From NCBI GenBank assembly GCA_910588025.1, contig CAJUQG010000002.1, positions 18,478 to 82,477 of the forward strand: DNA of 64,000 nucleotides. Reading direction: 5' to 3'. This document shows, in pieces, positions 2,214 to 59,398 of the stretch; position 1 is the stretch's first letter, and each line of letters starts with the position of its first letter. The stretch is from an uncultured Bacilli bacterium (GTDB taxonomy: Bacteria > Bacillota_I > Bacilli_A > RF39 > UBA660). Made by a program: the position numbers and the translations under genes. Under the pieces are notes generated by a model. That model was not told the origin of the DNA and made no database searches. It saw nothing but the letters and a program-made list of their open reading frames with translations.

Positions 2214-2257
2214 GCCTTATCGGTGCTATTTTAAAATACTTTTTATCGTTTTGCAAG

Positions 2258-4195: not shown

Positions 4196-4346
4196 TTTCT
4201 CCTCTTTTCTCTACTTATTATAACAAATTTATAATTTTTTTGGAGAAAGATGAACATAAAATTCATGGATTTTAATTAATCAATTACTGAACTGCTATTT
4301 TATTTTTTTATTTGAAAACTTTGAAGATTTGTACAATGATTTAACT

Positions 4347-4910: not shown

Positions 4911-5302
4911 CTATTTGAATTATAACATTTTTTAAGATTAAATTACTACTAAATACTAATTTTGTTGGAGTTTATCAATATGAATGGAAATACTTTTTTG
5001 AGCAACTAAAAACAAGAATATTAATCATTATTTATAGTAATATTATTGCTATAAATTTCATGAAACAAATATTAAGTAATCTATAATTTTATCTTTTGTA
5101 TTAATACAAATACTACTATGTAATTGAACAAATAATTGATTCAATCAACAAAATAACATTGAAGATTCATAATAAAAAACACTACAAATTATATTTAATC
5201 GTTATGATACCAATAATATTTTTTGCGTTAATGTTTAACTTTCTATCTCTTATTATATTATTTTTGTAGAATTTATTTATTGAATAAGCAAATATCTATT
5301 AT

Positions 5303-7090
5303 TTAGACACATGGATGTGGACAATCATTACAGTTATATAATTCTTTTTTTCTAATCAATTTTAAACTTTTACCTTGATTTAGTATAATTGGCTTTTCTT
5401 CTCCTACTTCTAATTGTACTTTCATTTCACTGTTACTCATCGTTTGTAAGTGATTTCGAACTAATTCCCAACCGTTTCTAGTCATGATATGAACAGGAAT
5501 TTTTACTCCTACTTGAGCTATGGCATTTGGTTTAATATATTCTTTCACATATTTAGAAGCGCACGACCATACGATATCTGCATTCTCTAACATAGTCTTA
5601 GCTGTTTTTTCATCTATTCCTGTTGAACATAAAGCAAATTTATAAATTGTTATACCTTCTTTTTCCAACTCTTTTAGTTGATTTAAAAGTTTATTATCTT
5701 GAGCTGCAAACGTAACGGCTATTTTTTTGTATCCTTTTTCTATGGCTTGTTTTACACCTGTTATTTGGTCAATATTTGCTGAATATGGAAAGACAGGAAT
5801 AATTTTAGATTCTCTTGCTTCATTCATTATATTTTCTGATGGACTAGTATAAAATAATCCAGTCATTCTTTTAACCGCCCCTTGGGTGTTCGTATTATTT
5901 GTCGTAATAATAGTTCCTAAATTATTGGAAACTATTACAGCTGCATCCAACATATCATTTTTAAATGCCGAAGCTATTGTTTCACTAGCACCAAATAAAA
6001 CATTTGCTTCACAAGAATTAAGGGGACGAGATGTATCAAAGTATCCGCCTTTTATAACAATGTTATTTATTAAATTACACATCATTTTTGTTTGTGTTTC
6101 AGTATTTTCTTTTCTAATTGCTTCAATAAATTTTTCACTTTCACTTCCTCCAACTTCATATAGAAGTTTAATCATTAATGGACAATATTTAATTGGGACA
6201 GGTGTGGCTTTAACGGCCTGTAACTCATCATTTATTTTTTGTAGAATTACATAGCTACCAAACATTCTGGTAATGTGCATTTCTTTCATAGCATAAAAAT
6301 CTCTCAATACACGATTTATATTTTTAGCTACTTGATCATCATTCCAATTATTCCAATCATCCATATACATTGTTAATTTGTCATTAGTAATGGTTATATC
6401 TAATATTTGAGTGTTAAAATGTAAGCCCCAACTAAACTTTTCATTATTAAATCTATTTAAAAAGTATTCTATTAAACCTTTTTGTTGAAAGTGATTATAA
6501 TAATCTATACTTTGTTCATCCATATCAAAATATTTTTCAACATGAGGATTTTTTAAAGGCACAGTATACTTATATACTCTTCCCATTTCTGAATAATAGT
6601 ATTTTAACTCTCCTTCTAATAATTGCATGTCTTCATCATTTGTCTTATATAAAGGTATTTCTTGCTTACCTATTTTTAACGTTTTGGCAATCTTTTCGGT
6701 ATTTTTATAATAATCTAATACTTTAGTTTTTAACATATCTTTATATTTTAGACAATTATTATCATCTTGTAAATTATAGAACATATAATCTCTTCTAGAC
6801 TTAATAATGGCACTTTTATAATCACAGCCCATCAAATAATAATAATTTATTCCTATTCCATCTCTGCTTTCATACGATGGGAGCATCACACGAAATGATG
6901 CGTCGCCATTCTTAATTTCCTGATCATCAAATCCTAATAATTGATAAACTTCTATTGCTTTTGTTCCAAAACCAAATTGATTAAAATCAATAAGCATTGC
7001 TTCACTTTCTTTATTCGTAAAACTTCCATCTTCTTTTACATAGCCCTTTTTAGTTTCTAAAATATATTTAAGTCCACTGTGACTTGCCAT
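5303..7090 (-). CDS. uncharacterised two-domain protein (595 aa). The C-terminal ~250 aa have a Rossmann-like beta-alpha pattern and a terminal Cys cluster CNDCPHPCV.
   Basis: Long uninterrupted ORF with a GAAAGAAGG RBS 8 nt upstream. It is transcribed divergently from a LysR regulator. I cannot place it in a known family. Confidence 0.6.
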   Translation of the reverse strand: MASHSGLKYILETKKGYVKEDGSFTNKESEAMLIDFNQFGFGTKAIEVYQLLGFDDQEIKNGDASFRVMLPSYESRDGIGINYYYLMGCDYKSAIIKSRRDYMFYNLQDDNNCLKYKDMLKTKVLDYYKNTEKIAKTLKIGKQEIPLYKTNDEDMQLLEGELKYYYSEMGRVYKYTVPLKNPHVEKYFDMDEQSIDYYNHFQQKGLIEYFLNRFNNEKFSWGLHFNTQILDITITNDKLTMYMDDWNNWNDDQVAKNINRVLRDFYAMKEMHITRMFGSYVILQKINDELQAVKATPVPIKYCPLMIKLLYEVGGSESEKFIEAIRKENTETQTKMMCNLINNIVIKGGYFDTSRPLNSCEANVLFGASETIASAFKNDMLDAAVIVSNNLGTIITTNNTNTQGAVKRMTGLFYTSPSENIMNEARESKIIPVFPYSANIDQITGVKQAIEKGYKKIAVTFAAQDNKLLNQLKELEKEGITIYKFALCSTGIDEKTAKTMLENADIVWSCASKYVKEYIKPNAIAQVGVKIPVHIMTRNGWELVRNHLQTMSNSEMKVQLEVGEEKPIILNQGKSLKLIRKKELYNCNDCPHPCV

Positions 7091-7110
7091 AATAAACCTT
7101 CTTTCTTTTT

Positions 7111-7138
7111 ATAGAAATTCTGCGCGTCTCTTTCTAAT
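7111..7138. promoter_or_regulatory. candidate LysR-type operator (TAGAAA-N13-TTTCTA dyad) in the divergent intergenic region
   Basis: ATAGAAATTCTGCGCGTCTCTTTCTAAT is a dyad with a GC-rich centre inside an AT-rich 120-bp intergenic region between the 595-aa gene and the LysR gene. Confidence 0.3.
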
Positions 7139-7209
7139 CGCATTATAGTTTATTTTGTGGTATAAATATAATATATATTTTTTATATTAAGTATAAGGAG
7201 AATTTATAG

Positions 7210-8109
7210 ATGAATATTAATTATGAATCTTATAAAATTTTTTATTTTGTAGCAATGGAAGGAAACATGTCAAAAGCTGCCAATCATTTACTTATTTCAC
7301 AACCGGCTGTTACCTGGCAGATAAAATCACTTGAAGAGCAATTAAACATAACGTTATTCACTCGTACTAAAAAAGGCGTCTCTTTAACTGAAGAAGGAAA
7401 ATTGTTATTTGAATATGTAAAACAAGGAGTGGAGTGTTTTACTAATGGTGAAAATATGTTAACAAATATAAAAAACTTAGATTATGGCATTATATCAATT
7501 GGCGCGAGTACTACTGTTAGTAAGCATGTTTTAATGCCTTATCTAGAAGTGTTTCATGAGAAATATCCCAATATTGAGATAAAAATAGTGAATGCTCTTA
7601 CAGAAAATCTCATTAAAGATCTTAAAAAAGGTAATTTGGATATGCTTGTACTTAATTTACCTATGAATGAAACAAAAGATTTAAAAATTCAAAAGGTTTT
7701 GAATGTACAAGATATTTTTGTTGGAAACAAAAGATATTACGAATTAACGAAAGGTAATATTACCTTAGAGAAATTAAATAATTATCCTTTACTTTTTCAA
7801 AAGCGCCCTTCTAATACTAGAACTTTTTTGGACAATTATTTACACAAAAATAATACCGTCTTAATACCTAAAACAGAAATAGTTAGTTATAATTTAATAA
7901 TGGATTTTGTAAAAAGTGGATTTGGAATAGGATACGCTACCAAAGAATTTATTAAAGATGATTTAAATAAGTCTTTATTTGAAATAAAAGTTACACCTAA
8001 AATTCCAGCAAGATATATTGGAATCGCAACACTTAATAAAACTATACCTAATTATAGTGTCAAAAAATTAATTCATCTTATGATAAATGATAAAAATATT
8101 AATCATTAA
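7210..8109 (+). CDS. LysR-family transcriptional regulator
   Basis: N-terminal HTH YKIFYFVAMEGNMSKAANHLLISQPAVTWQIKSLEEQLNITLFTRTKKGVSLT, which is the LTTR signature. 299 aa with a C-terminal substrate-binding domain. An AAGGAG RBS is present. Confidence 0.85.
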   Translation: MNINYESYKIFYFVAMEGNMSKAANHLLISQPAVTWQIKSLEEQLNITLFTRTKKGVSLTEEGKLLFEYVKQGVECFTNGENMLTNIKNLDYGIISIGASTTVSKHVLMPYLEVFHEKYPNIEIKIVNALTENLIKDLKKGNLDMLVLNLPMNETKDLKIQKVLNVQDIFVGNKRYYELTKGNITLEKLNNYPLLFQKRPSNTRTFLDNYLHKNNTVLIPKTEIVSYNLIMDFVKSGFGIGYATKEFIKDDLNKSLFEIKVTPKIPARYIGIATLNKTIPNYSVKKLIHLMINDKNINH

Positions 8110-8145
8110 AAGAATAAACTTATCTATCTGATTACAAATATTATA

Positions 8146-8455
8146 ATAATTCTAAATATTTCCTTAACATCTCTATTTCAAGCCTTGTTATTAAGTTAAT
8201 AAAATCTGTGTAATCACCAATTGTATGTGCTTTATCTACTGCTTCGTAATATTTTAGTCTATCCTCTTTTTTTATTATTACTGGATTATATCCATGATTC
8301 ATTAAATCTAAATTCATAAGTAGCCTTGAGGTCCTACCGTTACCATCAACAAAGGAAGAATTTTAACCAATTCTCCACATAATAAGGCTTCATGAAATTC
8401 TGGAACTTTTAAATAATTAGTAGGAATATGAGTTGCACCTTTAATCATTTTATTT
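8146..8455 (-). pseudogene. Fic-family protein gene remnant (3' two-thirds, with internal deletions)
   Basis: About 85% nucleotide identity to 10440..10800, the 3' part of the intact Fic gene at 10431..11360, but with gaps and frame breaks. No intact ORF. Confidence 0.7.
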
Positions 8456-8467
8456 ATAATATTTAAT

Positions 8468-8530
8468 TTATTTGTTTATATTTCGCCATTTCATTTTTGA
8501 TTACTTTTACTAAAAAAGAATGTTAACACT
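8468..8530. repeat. ~50-bp direct repeat, copy 1 (second copy at 12680..12760)
   Basis: TTCATTTTTGATTACTTTTACTAAAAAAGAATGTTAACACTC matches TTCATTTTTTGATTAGTTTTTACTAAAACAAAAAGGAATGTTAACA... upstream of the integrase gene. Confidence 0.7.
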
Positions 8531-8537
8531 CTCTATT

Positions 8538-9425
8538 TTAATCAATTAATAATTCTTTTTCTTCATTAACTTGTTTTTGTAATAATTCTAATTCTTTGAT
8601 ATTCTTATTGTCTTTTAGTACTTTCATTTGTCTTCTTGCGGAATTATTAAGTCTTACTAATCTCTCACTTTGAGGTACTTTTTCTTCAATCAATTCAGCA
8701 TTCGTATTTTGAAGATTATTTAAAATTACTAAATGTAGTAAATCAGTATAATCTCTCATGTTACCTTCTTTTGCCAATTCTGGATTATTATCTCTCCATT
8801 CTTTAGCTGTCATACCAAATAATGCAACATTTAAAACATCTGCTTCTTCAGCATATACAAATTTCTTTTGAGCTTCAGTAAGAGTTGGAACTATATAAGT
8901 TTTTACTGCATCAGTATGAACTACATAATTTAATTTAGATAATAGTCTATTTGCTTGCCAATCAATTTTCTCCTGATATGCTTCATTACTTTTTAATCGT
9001 TCAAATTCTTTTATTAAATATAGCTTAAATTCAGGGCTTAACCAACTAGCAAATTCAAACGCAATATCTGGATGAGCAAAAGTTCCTTTACTATATTTTC
9101 CGCTACTTGGAATTATTCCAATAGCATTAAAATCCTTTTTCCAACGATTAGGTGTCATCGTAAAACGATTATATGGAGCCTCATCAATTTTAATTCTGTG
9201 AAATTCCACGGAATTAAAATCTTCATTATTAATTTCTTCCCATAAACTATAATAATCAAATGAATTTTTATTTGACATCCAATTTCTAATTACACCAGAT
9301 GGATCTTCAGAATTTGCTTGTCTAGCTAAATCAGTTAATGAAATATAATTTACATTACCTACTCTTAAAATTCCTACTTTATTTTCTTTTACTATTATCT
9401 CTGTAGTTACTATATCTTTTTTCAT
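8538..9425 (-). CDS. KilA-N domain protein (phage/mobile-element DNA-binding protein)
   Basis: The N-terminus ...NYISLTDLARQANSEDPSGVIRNWMSNKNSFDYYSLWEEINN is a typical KilA-N domain; the C-terminal half is coiled-coil-like. It lies inside the mobile-element remnant. Confidence 0.7.
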   Translation of the reverse strand: MKKDIVTTEIIVKENKVGILRVGNVNYISLTDLARQANSEDPSGVIRNWMSNKNSFDYYSLWEEINNEDFNSVEFHRIKIDEAPYNRFTMTPNRWKKDFNAIGIIPSSGKYSKGTFAHPDIAFEFASWLSPEFKLYLIKEFERLKSNEAYQEKIDWQANRLLSKLNYVVHTDAVKTYIVPTLTEAQKKFVYAEEADVLNVALFGMTAKEWRDNNPELAKEGNMRDYTDLLHLVILNNLQNTNAELIEEKVPQSERLVRLNNSARRQMKVLKDNKNIKELELLQKQVNEEKELLID

Positions 9426-9586
9426 TACATCACCTCACTTTTTTTAATTTTAAAAGGATGTTCACATACCATTGTTGTTTACATCCTTTATTTTTAGGGC
9501 ATTTAAGCCAAATTTTTAATTATTTACAAACAAATATGAATTTGTTAACATTTTTTAAATTTGCAAAATCCTAGCAGCCCATTTAT

Positions 9587-9636
9587 TTATCTCACTTTCC
9601 GCAGCAATTTTTGTACTTTTTGCCCGAACCACATGT
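9587..9636. repeat. imperfect direct copy of the secA 3' terminus (attachment-site repeat)
   Basis: TTATCTCACTTTCCGCAGCAATTTTTGTACTTTTTGCCCGAACCACATGT is about 38/50 identical to the true secA end at 12811..12860. On the minus strand it still encodes ...TCGSGKKYKNCCGK*, the SecA C-terminal zinc-finger tail, with synonymous changes. Confidence 0.75.
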
Positions 9637-9867
9637 TCTATCAAATTCAGTATTTATAGCACTTATGGTATTACTGGAATTATTGGTATTTTAGGGAAAA
9701 AGTGGTTCCGAAGTATCAGATATTTATGGTATTTATAGTACTATGATTACTATAAATATTTCATCCAATGGGAACAAAATGGGAACATTGTGCTCATTCG
9801 TTCACTAAATCCACTTAAATTATAAACTAAATAATAGATTCAATCAATAACAATGACAAATTGTGCT

Positions 9868-10429
9868 CTAAAAACGCCTTGATAATACACCAACAGTTCT
9901 TAATAAATCGCTTGAATTTTCATATGCATACTTTCGAACATCAAACACTATTTTTGTAAATAAACTATTAATCATTTTTACAAGTTTGATAAATGAACCA
10001 GCATATAGAGTTATCTCTTCATCATCGACTTTAAATGTATAGTCAAATAGAGATAAACTCCCACTTCCAGATGATTTTATTCTAACTCCATGCATCTTAT
10101 GTTGGTATTTATTTCTTACTTTTCTTATCTTTTCTAAAAAATCATAATTTTCTTTTAAAATTTCATTATAATCATTGCTTAAGTATTTTATCTGTTCATT
10201 GTATTCTAATAAACCATCACTGTTTTTAAATTCCAATTGTTTGGTTTTTTTGTTATATGAATATGGAATCAATCTGGGAATATTTTGAATAATTTCTAGT
10301 ATAAATTCTTCACCATTTTCAAAATCATCTATTACATCAATTCCACATAATTTTATTAATTTAATTTAAATGGTATAAAGTTTCAAAGTACCCAAAAAGT
10401 GCATTTGCTATTTCAACATTCATATGCAT
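9868..10429 (-). pseudogene. hypothetical protein with an Rx4H (HEPN-like) motif, interrupted by a +1 frame break; translationally coupled to the Fic gene
   Basis: A short frame MHMNVEIANALFGYFETLYHLN* starts at 10427-10429, 1 nt after the Fic stop. It is out of frame by +1 with the 134-aa ORF 9868..10272, which itself stays open upstream to about 10400 (IKLIKLCGIDVIDDFENGEEF...). The downstream part contains EKIRKVRNKYQHKMHG, which matches R-x4-H. Confidence 0.4.
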
Positions 10430-10430
10430 T

Positions 10431-11360
10431 TTACCTCAACAATTCTAAATATTTCTTTAATGTTTCTATTTCCAGTTTAACTATTAATTTAACAAAATCT
10501 GTATAATCACCAGTTGTATGAGCTTTATCTAATGCTTCATAATATTCTAATCTATCTTCCTTTTTTATTATTACTGGATTAAACCCATAATTCATTAAAT
10601 CTAAATTCATAAGTAACCTTGCAGTTCTACCATTACCATCTACAAATGGATGAATTTTAACTAATTCACCATGTAATAAAGCAGCTTGAATAATTGGATG
10701 AAAATCATTCCAATTTTCGTAATTTAAAACTAACTTTTCCATTAACTCTGGAACTTTCAAGTAATCTGGTGGGATATGAGTTGCACCTTTTATAGTAACA
10801 TTTTCTCTTCTATATCTTCCTGCATTTTCATCACCAATATCTTTTAAAACTAATTGATGAATACCTTTGATATTCCACTCAGTAATCGGGTTATCTTCTT
10901 TTACCAAATCGTTTAAATATAAAATAGCCTTTTCATGATTGATAGCTTCTAAATGCTCTTTTATTGATTTTCCACCAACTGTAATTCCTTCTAATACAAC
11001 TTGTGTTTCTCTAAGTGTCAAAGTATTTCCTTCTATACCATTACTATTGTATGTCCATTCAAGATTAATTGAATCTTCTAATGATCTTAATGTTTCTTTT
11101 GGTATCGGTCTTTTATTATCTAATTCTCTCTTCAACTCATCAACTTCATTAAAATAATTAGCCTCTAAATCAATAATAAATTCTGTAAAATCTGGTTTAA
11201 TAACTCTTTTGTCTACTGGTTTTATTGCATCAACTGGAATATTCCAACTGTTTCCGTTTTTAACAGCTCCTTCAATCCTGCCATCTTGTAATAATTGCCT
11301 TATTCTTCTTTCACTAATATTCCATTTTTTTACAGCTTCTTTAGTAGTCATAAAATCCAA
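10431..11360 (-). CDS. Fic-family protein (class II: N-terminal HTH plus SxxxEG inhibitory motif plus Fic core)
   Basis: Fic motif HPFVDGNGRTARLL. The inhibitory-helix motif is TYNSNGIEGNTLT. The N-terminal ~55 aa look like an excisionase-type HTH (MDFMTTKEAVKKWNISERRIRQLLQDGRIEGAV). Confidence 0.85.
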   Translation of the reverse strand: MDFMTTKEAVKKWNISERRIRQLLQDGRIEGAVKNGNSWNIPVDAIKPVDKRVIKPDFTEFIIDLEANYFNEVDELKRELDNKRPIPKETLRSLEDSINLEWTYNSNGIEGNTLTLRETQVVLEGITVGGKSIKEHLEAINHEKAILYLNDLVKEDNPITEWNIKGIHQLVLKDIGDENAGRYRRENVTIKGATHIPPDYLKVPELMEKLVLNYENWNDFHPIIQAALLHGELVKIHPFVDGNGRTARLLMNLDLMNYGFNPVIIKKEDRLEYYEALDKAHTTGDYTDFVKLIVKLEIETLKKYLELLR

Positions 11361-11426
11361 AACGCTTCACCTCTATATATCATTATACCGCTAACGGTAG
11401 TTTTGGTCAACCATATAAGACTAATT

Positions 11427-12631
11427 TTATCTATATTTAATAATTTCATCTATAATATCTGATTTAACTGTTTGTTCAAATTTTTCACTTGCTTCTTTAA
11501 GTGTTTCATCAGTTGTTGATATATAATAATTTTCAGTAGCTTCTATCTTGCTATGCCCTAAAATGTCAGCTACATCTCTAATTTCTACACCATTTCTTAG
11601 ACTCTTTGTTGCATAACTTCCTCGTAAGTCATAGAATCTGCAATGTTCTATTCCCAATTCTGTATGAACCACTTTATATGGATATTTCATAATATCAGTT
11701 CCACTATAAACACCATTTTCTTTTCTAAATACTAAATCAAGATTTTCCAACAATTTAGCTTTTCTAACTGTTTCAACAATTCTATATTCTATTATTTTTC
11801 CATATTTATTTTTAACTTCTTCTAGATGATAATAGTGATACATTTTACCATATAACTTTTTAAAATTTTCTTGTTTCCTTTTATAATTTTTTAGAGCTAC
11901 TAATAAAGTATTACAAATATATACTTTTCTTACTCCATTTATTGTTTTTGTTGTACCTAAAAACCATTTCCCCTTTTCATCTTTAACTTTACTATAAACA
12001 TTATGCTCTATACTAATTATTCTCTTTTCAAGATCAATATTATCCCAAGTTAGTGCACAGACTTCACCGGTTCTCATTCCTGTAAAACATGCAACTAGAA
12101 ATGCACAGGTGAATGTTTCATTATTTTTAAATCTCTTTAAAATAAAATTCAATTTCTTCTTGAGTATAAATATGCCTTATAGTCTTTCTTTAATTGTTCT
12201 ATGTGCGGCAAACTTATAGTTATTGCTGGATTATAATTAATAAATCCAAATATATCAGTTGCAACTCTAAATGAACATTTTATTACTTTTACAAAATTTT
12301 TTAAATATCCATAAGAATAATCATATCTTCTACATACATCTATTAAATATTTATTTAACTGATAACTTGTAATTGCATTAAGTCTATAATGACCTAAATA
12401 AATCTTTAAATACTTATTAACAATAACTGAATACTCTTCTATTGTTCTATATTTTAAATTCACTTTGCAATAATTATCTAGCCAATAATCCAAATAATCT
12501 CCATATGACATATAGCTTTCCGTTTTACATCCTCCATTTTGATATTCATCATAAGCTTTTTGTCCTGCGGTAAATGCAGCATTTTTTGTTTTAAATCCAC
12601 TTTCTTTTTCCATTAACTTTTGTTGCTTCAA
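11427..12631 (-). pseudogene. tyrosine site-specific integrase, split by a frameshift into an N-terminal part (12149..12631) and a catalytic part (11427..12152)
   Basis: The catalytic domain has R (FTGMRTGEV), H-x-x-R (HCRFYDLRGSYAT) and the Tyr region (LGHSKIEATENYYI). The N-terminal ORF is a SAM-like core-binding domain. The two frames overlap at an AAGAAGAAA tract near 12149-12165. Confidence 0.7.
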
Positions 12632-12679
12632 AGCGATATTGATACACCTTTCCTCTTTTTTGAATACTAATCATTTTTA

Positions 12680-12760
12680 TCATCTCCCTTTCATTTTTTG
12701 ATTAGTTTTTACTAAAACAAAAAGGAATGTTAACATTTTATCTATGTTAACACTCCTTTG
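12680..12760. repeat. ~50-bp direct repeat, copy 2 (with an internal GTTAACA duplication), between the integrase start and the secA stop
   Basis: Matches 8468..8530 and contains ATGTTAACATTTTATCTATGTTAACAC. Confidence 0.7.
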
Positions 12761-12812
12761 TTTATAAGTATTTTAGCTATTTATTTTTTAATTTTAGCTA
12801 AACTTTTTTATG

Positions 12813-15299
12813 CTACTTTCCACAACAATTCTTATATTTCTTTCCTGAACCACATGGACAAGTATCATTTCTTCCTATTTTCTTATCATTTTTGACAGTA
12901 TGACCAACTTTTTCTTTTCCATCGTTGGAAGAACCTTTTATTACTTGTTTTCTTTCAATATTTTGTTCAATTTCGGCTTTTAATAAGAATTGTGCTACAT
13001 CGCTATCTATTTTATCTAATAGACGTTCAAATAGTTCGTAACCTTCCATGGTATATGCTTGAAGGGGATTGGTTTGACCATATCCTCTTAACATAATTCC
13101 GTCTTTTAAATGTTCCATTTCATTTAGGTGATTTACCCATAAAGAATCAATTACACGTAATGTAATGGCTTTCTCAAATTCTTCGAAAGCTGGAGCATCT
13201 TTAATTTTCTCTTCATAATCATCGTTAATTTTATTAAATAATAAATCAATAATTTCTTCTTCGCTCTTATCTTTTAATTCTTCTACAGATAGTTTTTCAC
13301 CTTTGATAAAATTAGAATTTACATATTCGATAATTTCTTGTTTATCATTATCTGTTAAATATCCTTCTGGAGCTATATGACTTTCAATTATATTGGTAAT
13401 CGTATTTTTGAAGGTATCTTTTATATTTTCATGAATACTTTCTAGTTCTAATACTTCATTTCTTTTTTCATAAATAATTAAGCGTTGTTCATTTACTACA
13501 TTGTCATAGTCTAATAAACTTTTACGCATATCGAAGTTATTTCCTTCAACTTTCTTTTGGGCTGATTCAATACTTCTAGTTAATGATTTGGAACGAATTG
13601 CTTGACTTCCTACCATTCCTAAAGCTTCAACCATTCTTTTTACTTTATCTGTTCCAAAACGGCGCATTAATTCATCTTCAAAAGATACAAAGAATTGACT
13701 CATTCCTGGATCACCTTGACGTCCAGCACGTCCACGTAATTGGTTATCAATACGACGAGATTCATGACGCTCTGTACCAATAACACAAAGTCCACCAAGT
13801 TCTTTTACACCTTCTCCAAGTTTAATATCTGTTCCACGACCTGCCATATTGGTAGCAATTGTAATTGCTCCCTTTTCTCCCGCTTTCGCAATGATTTCAG
13901 CTTCACGAGCATGATTTTTAGCATTTAATATTTCATGTTTTAATTTAGCTTTTGTAAGTAATGAACCTAAATATTCGTTTGCTTCTACAGAGATTGTACC
14001 CACTAAGATTGGTTGTCCAGTTTCATGAATTTCTTTAATTGTATTTACAATTGCTTCATATTTACCAGCCATATTAGAATATAATAAATCGGCACGGTCT
14101 TCACGAATTACTGGCTTGTTCGTTGGAATTTGAATAACATACATGTTGTAAATATTTCTAAATTCTTCTTCTTCTGTTTTTGCAGTACCTGTCATACCAG
14201 ATAATTTTTTATACATTCTAAATAAGTTTTGGAATGTAATCGTTGCCATTGTTCTAGTTTCTTCATTTATTTTAACATTTTCTTTGGCTTCTATTGCTTG
14301 ATGTAATCCTTCGCTAAATTGACGACCTTTCATTAAACGTCCAGTAAATTGATCTACAATAATTACTTCATTGTTATCTACAACATAATCTACATCTTTT
14401 TTAAAAGCATAATTTGCCTTTAGAGCTTGATTTACATGATGAACTAATGCTGAATTTTCTAAATCATATAAATTTTTGATATGAAAATATTGTTCAACTT
14501 TTGCAACACCTTTTTCCATTAAAGAGGTATTTTTAGTTTTTGGATCAAAATCATAATCTTCATTTTCAACTAAATTTTGAACAGCGGCATTTGCATCCAT
14601 ATATAAATCTTTTGTATTTGATTTACCTCCAGAAATAATTAAAGGAGTACGAGCTTCATCAATTAAAATTGAGTCAACTTCATCGACAATACAAAAGTTT
14701 AATGGTCTTTGAACACGGTCTGCTGCTTGAACTACCATATTATCTCTTAAATAGTCGAACCCTATTTCACTATTCGTAGAATATAAAATATCTGCATTGT
14801 ATGCTTCTTGTTTTTCTTTTGGACTCATTTCACGTAAATTTAAGCCTATTGTTAAGCCTAAAAATTCAAAAATGCTACCCATCCATTCAGAGTCACGTTT
14901 GGCAAGGAATTCGTTTACTGTTACGATATGAACACCTTCACCAGTTAAAGCATTTAAATAAGCTGGCATGGTTTCTGTTAAGGTTTTTCCTTCTCCAGTT
15001 TTCATTTCGGCAATATTACCATAATGAATGGCAAGTCCTCCTAAAATTTGGACAAAATAAGGCTTTTCTCCAATTACACGATAATCCGCTTCTCTTACTA
15101 CTGCATAAGCTTCGACTAAAATATCATCTAAAGTTTCTCCATTTGCTAATCTTTCTTTTAATTCGCTTGTTTTATTTTTTAGTTCTTCATCAGATAATTT
15201 GCTCATTGTTTCTTCTAAAGCAACTACTTCATTTGCTAAAACTTCGAATCTTTTTAATTCTTTATATTCTGAGTCGATTAATTTTCTAAATAATCCCAT
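12813..15299 (-). CDS. secA: preprotein translocase ATPase SecA
   Basis: 828 aa spanning the full SecA domain set, with the C-terminal zinc-binding tail CPCGSGKKYKNCCGK. Confidence 0.95.
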   Translation of the reverse strand: MGLFRKLIDSEYKELKRFEVLANEVVALEETMSKLSDEELKNKTSELKERLANGETLDDILVEAYAVVREADYRVIGEKPYFVQILGGLAIHYGNIAEMKTGEGKTLTETMPAYLNALTGEGVHIVTVNEFLAKRDSEWMGSIFEFLGLTIGLNLREMSPKEKQEAYNADILYSTNSEIGFDYLRDNMVVQAADRVQRPLNFCIVDEVDSILIDEARTPLIISGGKSNTKDLYMDANAAVQNLVENEDYDFDPKTKNTSLMEKGVAKVEQYFHIKNLYDLENSALVHHVNQALKANYAFKKDVDYVVDNNEVIIVDQFTGRLMKGRQFSEGLHQAIEAKENVKINEETRTMATITFQNLFRMYKKLSGMTGTAKTEEEEFRNIYNMYVIQIPTNKPVIREDRADLLYSNMAGKYEAIVNTIKEIHETGQPILVGTISVEANEYLGSLLTKAKLKHEILNAKNHAREAEIIAKAGEKGAITIATNMAGRGTDIKLGEGVKELGGLCVIGTERHESRRIDNQLRGRAGRQGDPGMSQFFVSFEDELMRRFGTDKVKRMVEALGMVGSQAIRSKSLTRSIESAQKKVEGNNFDMRKSLLDYDNVVNEQRLIIYEKRNEVLELESIHENIKDTFKNTITNIIESHIAPEGYLTDNDKQEIIEYVNSNFIKGEKLSVEELKDKSEEEIIDLLFNKINDDYEEKIKDAPAFEEFEKAITLRVIDSLWVNHLNEMEHLKDGIMLRGYGQTNPLQAYTMEGYELFERLLDKIDSDVAQFLLKAEIEQNIERKQVIKGSSNDGKEKVGHTVKNDKKIGRNDTCPCGSGKKYKNCCGK

Positions 15300-25476: not shown

Positions 25477-25632
25477 AATCAATCTCCTTTCGCCATGCCA
25501 AGTTATAGGCATAGTAATTTCATTTCTAATGTATTATATCATATTTTTCTTTGGTTGCAAGTGAAACATCTATAATAATTATATGTAATGTTTTAATAAT
25601 TACGCTTTTCTTTCATTTTATTTGTTACATAA

Positions 25633-26142
25633 TTATTTCATATGAAGTATATGTTTTATTTTTCCAGCAAAGAATACGAGTCCATCACTTTTTTTCATAG
25701 CAATTTGCTTTCCAATGGCTTTACCACCAACAGTTAAGGCTGAAATAAATGAAGTAACTAGTACCGTAACCCATATTCCATTTGCATTTAATTTTAAAGT
25801 AAGATAAGCTGTTAAAACGGCACCCAGAGATCCACTTACAATTCCACAAATATCACCGATTACATCGTTACAAACACTTGATACGACATTTCCATTTCTA
25901 AGTAAGGATATTGCTTCTTTTGCTCCAGCAATTTTTTTGGAGGACATGGCATGAAAACTTGATTCTTTACTTGTTAGCGCTGCTACACCAATCATATCAA
26001 ATAAGATACCTATAAAAATAACAAGGGTCATAATAAATAATAATATTACAACATTCATATCACTACAAAAACTAGTTAAAGCACTAAAAATAGCTGCTAA
26101 GAAAAAAGATAAACAAAATACTTTGAATGGCCAATATTTCAT
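25633..26142 (-). CDS. small integral membrane protein (169 aa, 4 TM, DVIGD = DxxxD motif), OapA-like candidate
   Basis: Four hydrophobic spans. The motif CNDVIGDICGIVSG lies in the third span. A GAGGTG RBS sits 6 nt before the ATG at 26140-26142. A ~525-nt transcribed ORF-free leader lies immediately upstream. Confidence 0.6.
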   Translation of the reverse strand: MKYWPFKVFCLSFFLAAIFSALTSFCSDMNVVILLFIMTLVIFIGILFDMIGVAALTSKESSFHAMSSKKIAGAKEAISLLRNGNVVSSVCNDVIGDICGIVSGSLGAVLTAYLTLKLNANGIWVTVLVTSFISALTVGGKAIGKQIAMKKSDGLVFFAGKIKHILHMK

Positions 26143-26159
26143 TTCATACACCTCTTTTT

Positions 26160-26702
26160 ATTTTATCAAGAAAAAAGATTCTTTTTAAGAACCTTTTAAG
26201 CTACAATGGTTTTTGTTGTGGTAAATTATAAATTAATTTTACGGCTTAGGTCGAGTTGAATTTCTCTACTTTCTACCTTTGGTTACCCGAGGGCGATTTC
26301 TCTTTCAAGAAAGCAACTAAGTGTTACCAGCTTAATTACTCGATTACCACTGAGTCCGCACTTTAATCCTTATAATTATAACATTCTAGAGGTTTTCCCT
26401 GACACCCACTATCCAATACTTATTCGCTTTTGCAAATACGATTTTGATAATCATCTATTTGATCGGGAATAGACTTTATTCATTATCTCCCACGTATTCA
26501 CTCACGACATGCACTTTTTTTATTTCTTGCGGGATTTTAGGAGATTCATTATATGCCATTATAACTTTCCTAAAATCTTAAATTATATAACCACCCCAAC
26601 TTGGGCAGAAGAAGCGAATTATATAAAGTGCTTTTCATGCAATTGGTAGATTTTTAGCCCTACCTTCATATTGTGTGTGTGACTAGAATAATGCACCACA
26701 TG
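26160..26702 (-). ncRNA. large structured noncoding RNA candidate (~525 nt, about 40% GC versus about 27% in the flanks), possibly an OLE-type RNA
   Basis: No ORF longer than 26 codons on either strand. GC is locally elevated (for example GGTTACCCGAGGGCGATTTC, CCACTGAGTCCGCAC). A consensus sigma-A promoter lies at its 5' end and a terminator at its 3' end. It sits immediately upstream of a 4-TM DxxxD protein. Confidence 0.45.
26168..26197 (-). terminator. intrinsic terminator/attenuator at the 3' end of the large noncoding transcript, just upstream of the membrane-protein RBS
   Basis: Minus strand GGTTCTT-AAA-AAGAATC followed by TTTTTT: a 7-bp stem with one G·U pair. Confidence 0.55.
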
Positions 26703-26709
26703 ACAATGA

Positions 26710-26738
26710 ATTATACACTATTTTTACTTTTTTGTCAA
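26710..26738 (-). promoter_or_regulatory. consensus sigma-A promoter TTGACA-N17-TATAAT driving the large ncRNA/leader
   Basis: Minus strand: TTGACA aaaaagtaaaaatagtg TATAAT. The -35 hexamer is plus-strand 26733-26738 and the -10 hexamer is 26710-26715. Confidence 0.7.
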
Positions 26739-36515: not shown

Positions 36516-37736
36516 TTATTTTTTGATTTTAATATTCATTTGATAATTGTCATTTAAATCCATTTCTTCTATTTCAATCACGAAACCTTGTTCATTCATT
36601 TGATTGATTAAATTCCGAACATTATTTATTGCAGTTTTTAAGTCAGTTCCTTTTTCCTCTTCTAACTTCTGCTCGTATGAAGGGTCTAATTTGATAATAG
36701 AAGCAACAGGATCAACAAGCATTTCTTCTTCTACTGGTTCTTTTACTTCTTCTATTTTATTTATGACAGGTTCATTGGTTCCAAAGAAAAAGGGATTTTC
36801 TTGTTCTTCGGTCTTTTTTACTACTGGTTCTTCTAAACCATCATCTAATATTTCCATGTCATTATTTAAAGGATTAATGACTTCTTTATTGGATGAGGAA
36901 ATTAAACCATCCATCATATTCATATTTGCGGCTTCATCTTCTAAAAAATTAAAAAATTTATTAGGAATGGTTGATGATGTCTCTTCTATTTTATTTTGTT
37001 TTGGTTCTTCCATTGGCTTCAACATACTTTCTACGTCATGTAATTCGCGAACTGGGTTAATGTCTGTAGCATTGTTCACAATTGATTCAAGATTTGGCGT
37101 TAAATTTACAAGTGGAATTTCTTCTCCAGCTGTTTCTTCTTTTAGTTTTTTTAGTTCCATATCTAATTGACGGACAGTCATTCTCTTTTCAATAATCTTT
37201 TTTAACCATTTTTTTTGTTCATCTTTCGCAAGCGATAATAAAGCTCTAGCATGGCGTTCAGAGATTTTTTCATTTAATAAAGCATTTTGAACGTCCTCAT
37301 CCAAATTTAAAAGTCTAAGTTTATTGGCTATAGTTGATTGAGAAACTCCCATTTTTTCTGCTAATTGTTCTTGAGTTAAGTAACCACGGTCTAATAAACT
37401 TTTATAAGATTTTGCTTCTTCTATCGCGGTTAAGTTTCGTCTTTGAATATTTTCAACTAATGCTACTTCTGCGCTTTTATTATCATCGATATTGGAAATA
37501 ATTGCTGGAACTTTTTGTAATCCAGCCATCGTTGCAGCTTTGTAACGTCTTTCTCCTGCAATAATCTCATATTTATCGCCAAGGCGTCTTAATACTAATG
37601 GTTGAATGATACCATGTTGTTTTATTGACTCTGAAAGTTCCGTTAGACCACCTTCATCAAATGCTAATCTTGGTTGGAATCGATTGGGTATAATATCTTC
37701 AATCGGTATTAGCTGAATATCCTTCTCCATATTCAC
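36516..37736 (-). CDS. ParB/Noc-family DNA-binding protein with a ~200-aa acidic C-terminal extension
   Basis: ParB N-domain (GIIQPLVLRR...IIAGERRYKAA) and an HTH (LTQEQLAEKMGVSQSTIANKLRLL). No parA/soj gene adjacent. It sits next to rsmG, as noc does. Confidence 0.75.
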   Translation of the reverse strand: MNMEKDIQLIPIEDIIPNRFQPRLAFDEGGLTELSESIKQHGIIQPLVLRRLGDKYEIIAGERRYKAATMAGLQKVPAIISNIDDNKSAEVALVENIQRRNLTAIEEAKSYKSLLDRGYLTQEQLAEKMGVSQSTIANKLRLLNLDEDVQNALLNEKISERHARALLSLAKDEQKKWLKKIIEKRMTVRQLDMELKKLKEETAGEEIPLVNLTPNLESIVNNATDINPVRELHDVESMLKPMEEPKQNKIEETSSTIPNKFFNFLEDEAANMNMMDGLISSSNKEVINPLNNDMEILDDGLEEPVVKKTEEQENPFFFGTNEPVINKIEEVKEPVEEEMLVDPVASIIKLDPSYEQKLEEEKGTDLKTAINNVRNLINQMNEQGFVIEIEEMDLNDNYQMNIKIKK

Positions 37737-47261: not shown

Positions 47262-47720
47262 ATGGAAAGTTATGAGATAAATAAAGATACCTTAGCTTTA
47301 ATTGCATTAAAAGATAAAACAGAAGTGTTTGAAGAAAATGATCATTTTTTTGTAGATAAAGTGGCGAACGAAATTATGGAAGCAAGTTGCGAGTATTTTG
47401 GAAGTTCGTTAGCAGGTAGACAAAAAGGAACAGAAAATTTAATTGGTAGTACTTATAAGGCTCCAGTTATTGTAGAAGAGTCTCAAGAAATAATCTTTTT
47501 TCCAACAGAATCTCCAAGACGAGAAGAGTGTTCATGGATTTCTTTACAAAAAATCAATAAATATTTTAGAATGGGTGATAAAATAGTTGTAGAGTTTAAA
47601 AACGGAAGTAGAGTAGTTCTAAATATTTCTTATGGAAAACTGGATAATCAAGTCATGCGCGCAACTCGATTAGAATCAGTTTTAAGAGGAAGAAAATACG
47701 ATAAAAATAGTTTTAAATAA
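47262..47720 (+). CDS. comK: ComK-family competence transcription factor homologue
   Basis: ESYEINKDTLALI..., CEYFGSSLAGRQKGTENLIGSTYKAPVIVEESQEIIFFPTES..., ECSWISLQKIN..., FKNGSRVVLNISYGKLDNQVMRATRLESV. These align block-by-block with B. subtilis ComK. Confidence 0.7.
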   Translation: MESYEINKDTLALIALKDKTEVFEENDHFFVDKVANEIMEASCEYFGSSLAGRQKGTENLIGSTYKAPVIVEESQEIIFFPTESPRREECSWISLQKINKYFRMGDKIVVEFKNGSRVVLNISYGKLDNQVMRATRLESVLRGRKYDKNSFK

Positions 47721-50831: not shown

Positions 50832-53291
50832 ATGGATAGAATAATTGAAAATAATATTGTTAATGAAGTAAAAGATTCTTTTTTAGATTATGCTATGAGT
50901 GTTATTACAGCTCGTGCTTTACCAGATTTGCGTGATGGATTAAAACCTGTTCATCGTCGTATTTTGTATTCGATGTATGAATCTAGTTATACTCCTGATA
51001 AACCTCATCGTAAAAGTGCAAGAATTGTTGGGGATGTAATGGGAAAATATCATCCTCATGGGGATTCTTCTATTTATGATGCTATGGTTCGTATGGCACA
51101 ATCTTTTAGTTTTCGCCATATGCTTGTAGATGGACATGGTAATTTTGGTAATATGGATGGCGATGGCGCTGCAGCGATGCGTTATACAGAAGCAAGATTA
51201 TCTAAGTTATCTCTTGAAATGATAAGAGATATCAATAAAGAAACAGTAAATTTTAGTCCGAATTTTGATGAAACGGAAAAAGAACCAGATATTTTACCTA
51301 GTAGATTTCCTAATATTTTAGTAAATGGGACGATGGGAATTGCGGTTGGAATGGCTACTAATATTCCTCCCCATAATTTAGGTGAAGTGATTGATGGTTG
51401 TGTAGCGTATATTGATAATCATGAAATAACAACTGATGAATTAATGCAATATATTAAAGGGCCAGATTTTCCTACTGGAGCTACTATTTTGGGTAATAGT
51501 GGTATTAAAAAAGCATATGAAACAGGTCGTGGCTCTATAACAATTCGCGGAAAAGTTGAAATTGAAGAAAATAATGGTAAGTCACGGATTATTGTTACAG
51601 AGTTACCATATCAAGTAAATAAAGCTGAATTTCAATCTCGTATTGGTGAACTAGTAAGGGATAAAATTATAGATGGAATTAGTGAATTACATGAAGAATC
51701 TAATTTAGAAAATCCCGTTCGTGTTGTTATTTATTTGAAAAGAGATGCCAATGCGAATGTTGTATTAAATAATTTATATAAGCATACACAGTTACAAACA
51801 ACGTTTGGTATTAATTTCTTGATGTTAGATCAACAAACTCCTAAGATTTTGCCACTGAAAGATATTATTTCGAAATATATTGATTATCAGAAGGAAATTA
51901 TTATACGTAGAACTCAATATGATTTGAGAAAAGCACAAGAACGCGTACATGTGTTAGAAGGATTAAAGATTGCTTTAGATCATTTAGATGAAGTTATTCA
52001 GACAATTCGTAATTCTAAAACTGATGTCATTGCAAAAGAGCAATTGATGCAACTATTTGGTTTAGATGATATTCAAGCTAATGCTATTCTTGAAATGAAA
52101 TTACGTCGTTTAACTGGTTTAGAGCGTGAAAAGATAGAAAATGAGTTATCAGAATTGTTAAAAACTATTGAAGAATTGCAAGCAATATTGGCTAGTGAAG
52201 AAAAGGTTTTAGCAATTATTAAAGAAGAATTGTTGGAAATAAAAAATAAATATGCTGATGAACGTCGTACTAATATAGATATGACAGCAATTGAGTATAT
52301 TGAAGATGAATCTTTAATTCCTGTAGAGAATATCATGATTGCTTTGACAAATAAAGGTTATATTAAACGTACTACTGTAGATACCTTTAAATCTCAAAAT
52401 AGAGGTGGAGTAGGTGTAAAAGGTATGGGAACGAATGAAGAAGACTTTGTTGAGCATTTAATTAACTTATCCACACACGATTATGCATTATTCTTTACCA
52501 ATAAAGGTAAGGTTTATCGTTTAAAGGGTTACGAAATTCCAGAATTTAATAGACAGTCTAAAGGATTGCCAATTATAAACTTGTTACAAATTGAGAAGGA
52601 TGAAATGATTAATAGTGTTATAAACATTAGTAATGATCATGATTATAAATATTTGTTATTTGTAACGAAACAAGGAATTGTAAAGAAAACAGCTATAAAT
52701 GAATTTGATAATATACGTACTTCTGGTAAAATATGTATTAATTTACGAGATAATGATGAACTCATAGCTGTTAAGAAAACAACAGGTGATAATTTAATTC
52801 TTTTAGGATCTAGTGCTGGTCGAATGGTTAAATTTGAAGAAAATGAGCTTAGAGTAATGGGTAGAACTGCAACAGGTGTGAGAGGTATTAATTTAGGTGA
52901 TGCAACTTGTGTTGGTTCTGAAATTGCTACAGACAATGATAAGGTATTGATTGTTACAGAAAAAGGATACGGGAAACAAACAAAAGTTTGTGAATATCGT
53001 GGTACAAAACGAGGTAGTAAAGGTGTAAAGGCTTTAAATGTTACAGATAAAAACGGAAATATTTCAGCATTTAAAGTAGTAAAAGAAAATCAAGATGTCA
53101 TTATAATAACTAATACAGGAATGTTAATTCGAATGCCTTTAGATCAAGTTTCAGTTTTAGGTAGAGTTACTCAGGGTGTTAGATTGATTCATTTAAAAAA
53201 TGAACAATTAGTTTCAACTATTAGTTTAGTTGACCATGAAGAAAATTTAGATGATATAGATGATGAAGAAATATCAAACAATAATGAATAA
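50832..53291 (+). CDS. gyrA: DNA gyrase subunit A
   Basis: Active-site Tyr region [10 protein letters not shown], the QRDR, and the C-terminal beta-pinwheel repeats. Confidence 0.95.
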
Positions 53292-53320
53292 AAAGAATGT
53301 TCCACGTGAAACATTCTTTT
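53291..53320. repeat. palindromic element copy 1 (AAAAGAATGTTCCACGTGAAACATTCTTTT); doubles as the gyrA terminator hairpin
   Basis: A 13-bp-arm inverted repeat around the CACGTG centre, followed by a T-run. Confidence 0.7.
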
Positions 53321-53461
53321 TATTGTTGATAACTAAATAATAAAATTACTTGTAATATTTCTTCTAAATAAAAAATTAGCTAATAAATTAACGTTTTATA
53401 TTTAAAAACTTATTCATTGCTATTAAAATAATTATATTTAGAGTTAAATTCTCATTTTTTT

Positions 53462-53491
53462 CATTCAATGTTCCACGTGAAACATTGAATG
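53462..53491. repeat. palindromic element copy 2 (CATTCAATGTTCCACGTGAAACATTGAATG)
   Basis: Same 20-bp core AATGTTCCACGTGAAACATT as copy 1. Confidence 0.7.
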
Positions 53492-53654
53492 TGTATAACT
53501 TGTTTTTTTACTTAATAATATCAAAAAAATGTTTTTGTCTTTTAAGAAATTGTTAATTTTTTTTATTATTTTTAGTAAAATTGATTAATTTTTCTAATTA
53601 AAATAGGCAAATTTGGTTTTTTTTATTATCTTTTAAATTTTAGTGTGAATAAAT

Positions 53655-53677
53655 ATGTTTCACGTGGAACATTGAAT
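53655..53677. repeat. palindromic element copy 3 (inverted orientation: ATGTTTCACGTGGAACATTGAAT)
   Basis: Exact reverse complement of the 23-nt core of copy 2. Confidence 0.7.
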
Positions 53678-53715
53678 TATAGTTGATAAATATATTTATT
53701 TTTGATAGAATTTAT

Positions 53716-53797
53716 TTGTGCAACAAATATATTGCAAAATGGTCAGGATCGGAAGATAGCAGCCAATGTAATCCCTATTTGTGTGCACTTTTTTTAT
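53716..53797 (+). ncRNA. ffs: small (4.5S-type) signal recognition particle RNA
   Basis: The hairpin GTGCAACAAATA...TATTTGTGTGCAC encloses GGTCAGGATCGGAAGATAGCAGCC, which matches the SRP domain-IV consensus GUCAGGUCCGGAAGGAAGCAGCC. A T-run follows. Confidence 0.65.
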
Positions 53798-53809
53798 TGA
53801 AGGTGAAGT

Positions 53810-55934: not shown

Positions 55935-56234
55935 ATGAATATGCAAAGTATTATGGCACAAGCTCAAAAAATGCAAAGAGATTTGCAAAAAAAGAAAGAA
56001 GAATTAAATCAAGAATTATTTCCCGGGAAATCTGATTGGGTGGAAGTAGTTTTTAATGGTAAAAAAGAATTAGTTTCAGTAAAGATATTGTTTGAAGGTG
56101 ATATTACTTCAGATGATAAAGAGATGCTAGAGGATATGTTTTCTTTAGCTGTAAAAGATGCAATGAATCAAATAGAGAAGTCTTTTCAAGAAAAAATGGG
56201 ACCATATGCAAATATGCTTGATGGTATTATGTAA
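55935..56234 (+). CDS. ybaB: nucleoid-associated protein YbaB/EbfC
   Basis: MNMQSIMAQAQKMQRDLQKK... AGAAGG RBS; conserved dnaX-ybaB-recR order. Confidence 0.85.
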   Translation: MNMQSIMAQAQKMQRDLQKKKEELNQELFPGKSDWVEVVFNGKKELVSVKILFEGDITSDDKEMLEDMFSLAVKDAMNQIEKSFQEKMGPYANMLDGIM

Positions 56235-58704: not shown

Positions 58705-59398
58705 TTTGTATGATTATTCTTCTATGAAAATTTATCAATATGATGAAGCTTTTAAATTTTCATTAGATTCAATTTTATTGGCCGAATTAGTTCAAATTCA
58801 TAAGAATGATCGAAATATACTGGATTTATGTACAGGAAATGCTGTAATTCCTTTGATACTTTCGACAAAAACATCACTTTCTATCGTAGGAATAGAATAT
58901 CAAAAAGAAATTTATGAGTTAGCATCTTTGTCAGTTAATTATAATCAAAAAAATCATCAAATTACTTGTATTAATGACGATATATTAAATATTGATAAAT
59001 ATTTCCCGGGAAATAACTTTGATATTATTACTTGTAATCCTCCTTATTTTAAATATCATAATAAGGAATTTTTAAATCATGATAAATTAAAACAAATTGC
59101 TAGACATGAGGTTAAGATCACTTTAGAGAATGTTATTCGAATAGCTTCATGTAATATAAAAGAAAAAGGAAACTTTTACATGGTTCATATTTGTGAAAGA
59201 TTGCAAGAAATTATGGTTTTGTTAGAAAAATATCATTTTCGTATGAAAGATTTATATTTTGTTTATCCTAATAGAAGTAATAAAGCATTTTTAGTCTTGT
59301 TTCGTGCTATAAAGGGCGGTAATATAGGTATGAAAATTCATAAACCAATTTATTTGGATGAATTAACAACTTATCAAAATATGTTTAAAGGAGAATGA
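58685..59398 (+). CDS. tRNA (adenine37-N6)-methyltransferase-like (YabB/TrmN6 family)
   Basis: ITCNPPYF motif and the SAM region LDLCTGNAVIP. There is no yabA between ricT and this gene. Confidence 0.7.
   Translation: MKKILNDLYDYSSMKIYQYDEAFKFSLDSILLAELVQIHKNDRNILDLCTGNAVIPLILSTKTSLSIVGIEYQKEIYELASLSVNYNQKNHQITCINDDILNIDKYFPGNNFDIITCNPPYFKYHNKEFLNHDKLKQIARHEVKITLENVIRIASCNIKEKGNFYMVHICERLQEIMVLLEKYHFRMKDLYFVYPNRSNKAFLVLFRAIKGGNIGMKIHKPIYLDELTTYQNMFKGE

Follow-up and report, generated by a model that had tools for sequence, protein, structure and literature searches.

Three exact matches to the parS consensus point to a ParB loading cluster beside gyrA in the origin region of an uncultured gut Bacilli bacterium

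Introduction

Chromosomal parS sites are the centromere-like loading sites of ParABS partition systems. In Bacillus subtilis the consensus site is TGTTCCACGTGAAACA, and ten single sites are scattered near the origin (PMC7614844). The nucleation of ParB (Spo0J in B. subtilis) on such sites, its closure into a clamp by cytidine triphosphate (CTP), its sliding and the loading of SMC have been reviewed (PMC7333895). In Corynebacterium glutamicum ten sites are gathered within 35 kb, and clustered chromosomal sites are also found in Caulobacter, Pseudomonas and Streptomyces, where they are redundant, mostly intergenic and form one nucleation zone near oriC (PMC7083940, PMC7333895). A single parS is enough for basic function in B. 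subtilis (PMC7614844) and in C. glutamicum (PMC7083940). Here we describe three palindromic repeats in the spacer between gyrA and ffs, the gene of the small signal recognition particle (SRP) RNA, in an uncultured Bacilli bacterium (assembly GCA_910588025.1, contig CAJUQG010000002.1), and we find that they are very likely canonical parS sites lying about 9 kb right of oriC. The window denotes the whole 64-kb stretch of DNA that was analysed. The analysis covered about 72 kb of this genome in all, and about 21 kb for each relative.

The locus resembles that of B. subtilis in several respects, namely the same 16-bp site, a Spo0J-like ParB, the origin-proximal position of the sites, a ParA with a deviant Walker A motif as in Soj, and a coexisting Noc paralog with separate Noc-binding sites (NBS). 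It differs in that three sites are packed into 375 bp with none other in the ~72 kb, and in that parAB is not beside noc and rsmG but about 48 kb left of oriC. Redundancy, a mostly intergenic location and a single zone near oriC are shared with the clustered sites of the other species named above, whereas the spacing is tighter here (171-187 bp, and a 40-bp period in one relative, L021) and the cluster is anchored to gyrA-ffs-tadA-dnaX instead of parAB. Among plasmids, the sopC locus of F consists of 12 tandem 43-bp repeats with a SopB site in each. The head-to-tail arrays of our relatives (L021) likewise carry one ParB site per unit, as do sopC and, among engineered constructs, the parS16 arrays (PMC7614844). 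Those of the relatives are natural, chromosomal and built on the chromosomal parS consensus, while the window itself holds only three non-tandem copies.

Three repeats matching the parS consensus

The 20-mer AATGTTCCACGTGAAACATT was found exactly at 53296-53315 (+) and 53467-53486 (+). An initial annotation, made from the letters of this DNA, had reported these two copies together with an exact reverse complement. The first two stand as described, while the third copy, AATGTTCCACGTGAAACATA at 53654-53673 (-), agrees with AATGTTCCACGTGAAACATT at 19 of 20 positions and the exact reverse complement is limited to the 19 nt that begin at 53655. All three copies contain TGTTCCACGTGAAACA, the 16-bp core, without a mismatch, twice on the + strand and once on the - strand (parS-1 to parS-3 in Table 1), with centre-to-centre distances of 171 and 187 bp. 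The rest of the 64-kb window and a further 7.7 kb of flank contain no additional copy of this core, and at the sole other window match with two or fewer mismatches, at 25553, the central CACGTG is destroyed. In dinucleotide shuffles of the window the expected number of matches was 0.00 for the 20-mer and 0.07 for the 16-mer pattern. Against three exact cores this bears out the earlier statement that the repeats are far beyond chance. The earlier view of them as protein-binding or structural sites stands as well.

At all of its 16 positions the core equals the B. subtilis consensus parS (PMC7614844), and at 15 of them it agrees with the idealised parS TGTTTCAC-GTGAAACA (PMC7383237), and the spacer holds three exact matches to TGTTNCACGTGAAACA, the pattern of the 16-bp parS palindrome.

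The position of the repeats is that expected of parS. The window covers the region around the replication origin of a Firmicute of 26-33% GC, represented by an uncultured gut Bacilli metagenome-assembled genome (MAG) of 28% GC, and the cumulative GC-skew minimum, or switch, of the window falls at about 44 kb. Left of the origin, on the minus strand throughout, lie rnpA, yidC, jag, mnmE, mnmG, rsmG and a ParB-family gene. Right of it follow dnaA (44427), dnaN, recF, gyrB, gyrA (50832-53291, with its stop codon TAA at 53289-53291), the spacer, the small SRP RNA gene, a tadA-like deaminase gene, dnaX, ybaB and recR. DnaA-box clusters are present on either side of dnaA. The three sites are 8.9 kb right of the dnaA start and hence origin-proximal.

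A matching ParB and ParA pair is also encoded. Contig L002 from the MAG assembly GCA_948624705.1 is 100.000% identical to window positions 1-13106 (13.1 kb compared), and it carries parA and parB about 2.8-4.5 kb left of window position 1. The ParB (296 amino acids, L002:16713-17603) contains the TIGR00180 parB_part domain at 195 bits, and its top match in the PDB is B. subtilis Spo0J (6SDK) with 212.7 bits, compared with 140-147 bits for Noc. An N-terminal ParA-interaction motif and the GERRxR CTP motif can be recognised in its sequence. The residues that set specificity for parS or NBS are R/T/A/G in ParB and Q/K/K/R in Noc (PMC7383237). At these positions our ParB, which has the helix-turn-helix of its family, reads R/M/T/G and so includes the equivalents of the parS-type R173 and G201. 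The partner ParA (261 amino acids, with KGGVGKTT) is encoded directly upstream of parB and is hit by the Pfam families ParA, CbiA and AAA_31, while its NCBIfam equivalog scores are under the curated cut-offs. The 296-residue ParB is thus the predicted cognate reader of the three sites.

Because the 16-mer equals the B. subtilis consensus, is origin-proximal, has a cognate ParB and ParA and is conserved throughout the clade (see below), we assign the three repeats with high confidence to the canonical chromosomal parS elements, that is, to the centromere-like loading sites of a ParABS system. The element is already well known, and only its instance in this species is new. None of the three candidates put forward in the initial annotation (an operator family, a dispersed palindromic repeat, or repeated terminator or processing sites) had named parS, and the sites match the ParB/Spo0J consensus.

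If so, a ParB (Spo0J) dimer would recognise each 16-bp palindrome through its helix-turn-helix, bind CTP, close to a clamp and slide onto the flanking DNA. Three neighbouring sites would seed one dense ParB-DNA complex across the origin region, and their adjacency would increase the loading rate and provide redundancy. The complex would load SMC condensin and stimulate ParA/Soj, which would in turn drive origin segregation and feed back on DnaA. These steps have been established with the ParB proteins of B. subtilis, Caulobacter and others, and for the present sites we infer them by analogy. Taken alone, the finding annotates the chromosome centromere of an uncultured organism, which is useful for locating the ParB/SMC loading zone and is unsurprising.

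Conservation and expansion in related species

When the GyrA C-terminal domain was used as the query, 57 loci were retrieved, of which 53 belong to the uncultured gut Bacilli MAG clade (57-96% identity; MAGs from mouse, rabbit, human and goat). At the gyrA locus parS is present in 51 of these 53 related species. A motif unique to this locus and absent from relatives had been named beforehand as the sign of a chance local duplication. The opposite was observed, and since the motif is conserved at the locus in so many species, it is neither unique nor a chance duplication. Within -50 to +2000 of the gyrA stop (89 kb in total) there are 196 parS, compared with one in the other 734 kb of the 53 species. 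The clade logo is an 18-bp palindrome, A-TGTT[T/C]CACGTG[A/G]AACA-T, and the flanks differ between copies and between species.

The number of sites per locus ranges from 2 to 14, and these counts are lower bounds, as 11 of the 53 contigs end less than 900 bp past gyrA. It is probable that parS arrays break short-read assemblies. In one relative (L021:10983-11523) a 40-bp unit with one parS is repeated 13.5 times in tandem at 95% identity, and in two others (L014 and L015) 11 parS each are spread across about 1.8 kb. Expanded arrays downstream of gyrA were also seen in L009, L016, L020, L022 and L023. In 24 related species a parS lies +3 to +20 nt past the gyrA stop. Six relatives (L024, L025, L026, L027, L028 and L031) have a perfect parS within the coding sequence of the GyrA C-terminal tail, 24-39 nt before the stop. 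The gene order gyrA-ffs-tadA-dnaX is conserved in the clade. Within it the arrays differ in placement: the nearer species have them in the gyrA-ffs interval, L009-L012 carry them on either side of ffs, and in more distant species they fall in the tadA-dnaX interval.

All five conspecific strains retain three sites. In three of the five, the asymmetric pair of parS-2 is flipped, so that TGTTCCACGTGAAACA becomes TGTTTCACGTGGAACA and the site is kept (L062:3659, L064:3659 and L066:204). Recombination between the inverted repeats of copies 2 and 3 was considered as the cause and ruled out, as the intervening segment is not inverted. Short-patch gene conversion from copy 3, or two transitions, fits better.

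The clade offers a natural series at one fixed locus, in which the number of sites climbs from 2 to 14 or more, the copies range from dispersed to perfectly tandem, and DnaA-box-like motifs and NBS occur alongside. A review asks why the number of parS varies and why sites cluster (PMC7333895), and the series would let this question be approached by comparative genomics.

Alternative explanations

The sites could instead be operators for ffs, tadA, dnaX or gyrA, bound by ParB as a repressor or by another regulator that recognises CACGTG, and we regard this as unlikely. Its best argument is the ffs promoter (Table 1), the -35 hexamer of which begins 11 nt past the end of parS-3. In 21 related species the last parS begins at a nearly constant distance, 49-64 nt, before the 5' end of the SRP RNA, and the TGnTAnAAT element and its distance to GTGCAACAAATAT are conserved across species. 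Some proteins of the ParB family, such as KorB and Pseudomonas ParB, do affect transcription. On the other hand, the spreading of B. subtilis Spo0J has little transcriptional effect. The motif is moreover the exact parS consensus with its cognate ParB present, and arrays that reach 14 copies, or that have moved to the tadA-dnaX spacer, are unlike a promoter-specific operator. The operator family of an unfamiliar regulator suggested by the initial annotation is hence not borne out, as the sites are those of the well-known ParB/Spo0J. ParB occupancy at parS-3 might touch ffs transcription, and this one site could serve as an operator in addition, though only secondarily, in which case the operator reading is not necessarily a true rival to parS.

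A second alternative takes the sites as NBS of the Noc-like paralog encoded at 36516-37736 (-), which we consider highly improbable. Noc and NBS, known from nucleoid occlusion, resemble ParB and parS in protein family and site architecture, with two positions in each half-site setting NBS apart from parS. The Noc-like protein (406 amino acids) is the only ParB-family gene inside the window and is closely paralogous to ParB (45% identity across the N-terminal and helix-turn-helix domains); no other ParB-family paralog and no ParA with a deviant Walker A motif was found in the window. It was tried as the reader of the sites and ruled out by its PDB ranking (197 bits to Noc vs 162-173 to Spo0J, with 162 for B. 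subtilis Spo0J) and by its specificity residues Q/K/N/R, which include the Q, K and R of Noc. The three sites fail the NBS test as well. Each half-site departs from the NBS consensus TATTTCCC-GGGAAATA at precisely the two positions that discriminate, with G at position 2 where NBS has A, and A at position 7 where NBS has C. Separate NBS sites do exist in the window, one with a single mismatch at 56017-56032 and a perfect one (TATTTCCCGGGAAATA) at 59000-59015, inside ybaB and a methyltransferase-like open reading frame (ORF), and none is present in the window's own gyrA-ffs spacer. In relatives, NBS is interleaved with parS yet distinct from it at 16 of 52 loci. There, 30 NBS fall in 27.7 kb of arrays compared with 71 in 821 kb of flanks, a density about 12-fold higher in the arrays, which include L014, L019, L045, L048, L051 and L052. 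Because the window paralog is Noc-like and the NBS sites are located elsewhere, the two families of sites are distinct. The genome is accordingly predicted from its proteins and sites to run two separate ParB-family systems, of which the three sites belong to that of ParB.

Some features of the Noc-like protein itself deserve mention. Its specificity residues Q/K/N/R depart from Q/K/K/R, and an extra acidic low-complexity stretch of about 120-200 residues stands ahead of the C-terminal domain. The ORF is open for only six codons upstream of the start, and the protein is without some 20-25 N-terminal residues of the solved Noc chains. The membrane-targeting helix of B. subtilis Noc falls in that N-terminal region.

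It is equally improbable that the three copies all work purely at the RNA level, as repeated terminators or as processing hairpins upstream of the SRP RNA, and bind no protein as DNA. As an addition to its parS role, a terminator function is probable for copy 1. The palindrome around copy 1 has arms of 19 nt that are 95% complementary (inverted repeat I6). Its stem begins inside the last sense codon of gyrA, and the T-run TTTTTATT follows the core stem. Its RNA folds at -14.0 kcal/mol (z = -4.6, + strand). Covariation was evaluated in 16 sequences (15 relatives and the window) with a parS-1 directly after the stop codon. Stem cells were paired in 90.4% of cases compared with 80.6 ± 1.6% in shuffles, none of the 500 shuffles reached this value, and slid controls were 45-54% paired. 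Eight stem pairs change on both sides across the set, and the stem extension varies yet pairs (gaa/ttc, taa/tta, caa/ttg, tagaa/ttcta and ggtaa/ttacc). The stem-loop after the stop, the U-tract and the covariation that define an intrinsic terminator are hence all found at copy 1, and its palindrome and T-run probably also terminate gyrA when transcribed. This upholds, as a probable function, the earlier proposal that copy 1 doubles as the gyrA terminator.

The broader claim, that the copies are repeated terminators or processing sites, is upheld as probable for copy 1 and fails for copies 2 and 3, neither of which has a T-tract directly past its stem. Likewise, the extended arms and long hairpin ascribed to every copy were confirmed for copies 1 and 2 only. 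The palindrome of copy 2 has 15-nt arms and a moderate fold (z = -2.1 on the + strand and -4.5 on the - strand). Copy 3, in which 23 nt match copy 2 read in reverse complement (inverted repeat I2), has no extended arms and folds like shuffled sequence (z = +0.18 and -0.21). Selection on structure alone would allow covariation, yet the 16-18-bp sequence itself is invariant across species. No Rfam family was matched in the gyrA-ffs spacer, and no hidden RNA or peptide gene was found there.

To the remaining proposal, a dispersed family of the repetitive extragenic palindromic (REP) or miniature inverted-repeat transposable element (MITE) kind with three insertions in the spacer, we give almost no credence and reject it at the scale examined, for although copies 1 and 2 lie inside longer palindromes and relatives have tandem and dispersed copies at the same locus, where assemblies break, there are zero further copies in the window and the 7.7 kb of flank, only 1 of 197 copies in the 53 species is outside the gyrA-locus spacers, only the 18-bp core is conserved while flanks vary between copies and species, and neither terminal repeats nor target-site duplications are seen.

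DnaA-box-like motifs beside parS

Next to each of the three parS sites stands a TGT[GT]NATAA motif, the reverse complement of the DnaA-box consensus TTATNCACA (Table 1). The motifs adjoining parS are also written TGTTGATAA, TGTGTATAA and TGTGAATAA. Three boxes with no more than one mismatch in 416 bp compare with about 0.14-0.26 expected. The variant TTATCAAC is enriched in the oriC of this genome, which holds 6 of its 15 window copies. The conserved AGTTGATAA after parS-3 was examined as a fourth DnaA box and reassigned, as it holds the ffs -35 TTGATA; it also fits the TTATCAAC variant.

In the arrays of the clade, 42 exact boxes lie on one strand and 0 on the other, compared with 2.5 ± 1.6 in shuffles, counts that are partly inflated by tandem duplication. 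The boxes adjoin nearly every parS in one orientation (arrays in L005-L019). Box density was profiled in 15 near-group sequences (the window and 14 relatives); it is highest at oriC and in the arrays, and hits elsewhere are only scattered. The box beside the orthologous last parS ahead of ffs reads TGT[GT]NATAA and varies at the degenerate positions only.

Box-like motifs tied to parS, origin-proximal and outside oriC, have precedents. In Caulobacter, DnaA binds boxes inside the parS region, according to the passage of PMC6399470 that relates Mera 2014, and clusters of DnaA boxes near the B. subtilis origin act in synergy with Spo0J (PMC3245932). Compared with these, the candidate boxes described here stand nearly one-to-one with parS, share one orientation among the exact matches and occur in a Firmicute lineage. 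Less firmly than the parS assignment, it is plausible that the co-oriented motifs recruit DnaA to the parS spot.

We put forward tentatively, as somewhat less probable than its opposite, that gyrA-ffs-tadA-dnaX is, in this clade, a dedicated and rapidly evolving 'origin-organising island'. In it parS would be amplified (2 to at least 14 copies, in places as 40-bp tandem arrays), some species pairing the sites nearly one-to-one with DnaA boxes of a single orientation and others interspersing them with NBS, and ParB, DnaA and Noc would be co-recruited about 9 kb from oriC. If true, the island would physically couple partition, initiation control and nucleoid occlusion, and the three parS sites and three DnaA-box-like motifs of the window would be its minimal version.

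Several points weigh against the interpretation as a whole. We infer ParB occupancy, spreading, SMC loading and termination from homology. As about 72 kb of the genome were covered, further parS may exist and the cluster may not be the main centromere. The parAB genes are about 57 kb from the sites, across oriC, and not adjacent as in many species. With regard to termination, the stem of copy 1 is AU-rich with two G-C pairs on the + strand, and a simple terminator scan flagged the - strand only. The reading of the adjoining motifs as DnaA boxes draws on an enrichment in sequence that is partly inflated by the duplication of tandem units within species.

Features of the spacer and other observations in the window

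The coordinates of the features in and around the spacer are collected in Table 1. Promoter-like sites in the region were not more frequent than in shuffles.

Table 1. Features of the gyrA-ffs spacer, in window coordinates
Feature	Positions	Strand	Remarks
Extended palindrome of parS-1	53287..53324	+	core stem 53295-53316 then TTTTTATT; probable intrinsic terminator
parS-1	53298..53313	.	TGTTCCACGTGAAACA, exact TGTTNCACGTGAAACA match; begins 7 nt past gyrA stop
DnaA-box-like TTATCAACA	53324..53332	-	+ strand TGTTGATAA; one mismatch to TTATCCACA; 10 nt past parS-1
parS-2	53469..53484	.	TGTTCCACGTGAAACA within 15-nt-arm palindrome 53462-53491
DnaA-box-like TTATACACA	53490..53498	-	exact TTATNCACA match; 5 nt past parS-2
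DnaA-box-like TTATTCACA	53644..53652	-	exact TTATNCACA match; ends 3 nt before parS-3
parS-3	53656..53671	.	TGTTTCACGTGGAACA on + strand, TGTTCCACGTGAAACA on - strand; no extended arms
ffs promoter	53683..53711	+	-35 TTGATA, 17-nt spacer, TG-extended -10 TAGAAT; best + strand promoter-like match in region, 10/12
Small SRP RNA gene ffs	53707..53804	+	Rfam RF00169, 56.1 bits vs gathering score 40; downstream edge of parS spacer

The genes around the spacer (gyrA, SRP RNA and tadA) had been called correctly in the initial annotation. For the 137-residue deaminase ORF at 53810, TadA is the top match, with a score under the curated cut-off (97 vs 150 bits).

By its gene content the organism is an anaerobic spore-former, as marked by spoIIR and by an ornate large extremophilic (OLE) RNA. 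The OLE RNA is full-length, at window positions 26202-26715 (-) with 242.7 bits, and the adjoining ORF of 172 amino acids (25633-26151) has no NCBIfam match. A 3.3-kb segment at about 9531-12802 contains a split phage-type integrase, a Fic-domain gene and a small ORF. It is present in this genome and in L002 and absent from the conspecific L003 and L004, where secA lies directly beside the KilA-N gene. Finally, a gene of 152 amino acids at 47262-47720 (+), between dnaN and recF, was recorded with a ComK-family Pfam hit; in B. subtilis this position is taken by a small S4-like RNA-binding protein.

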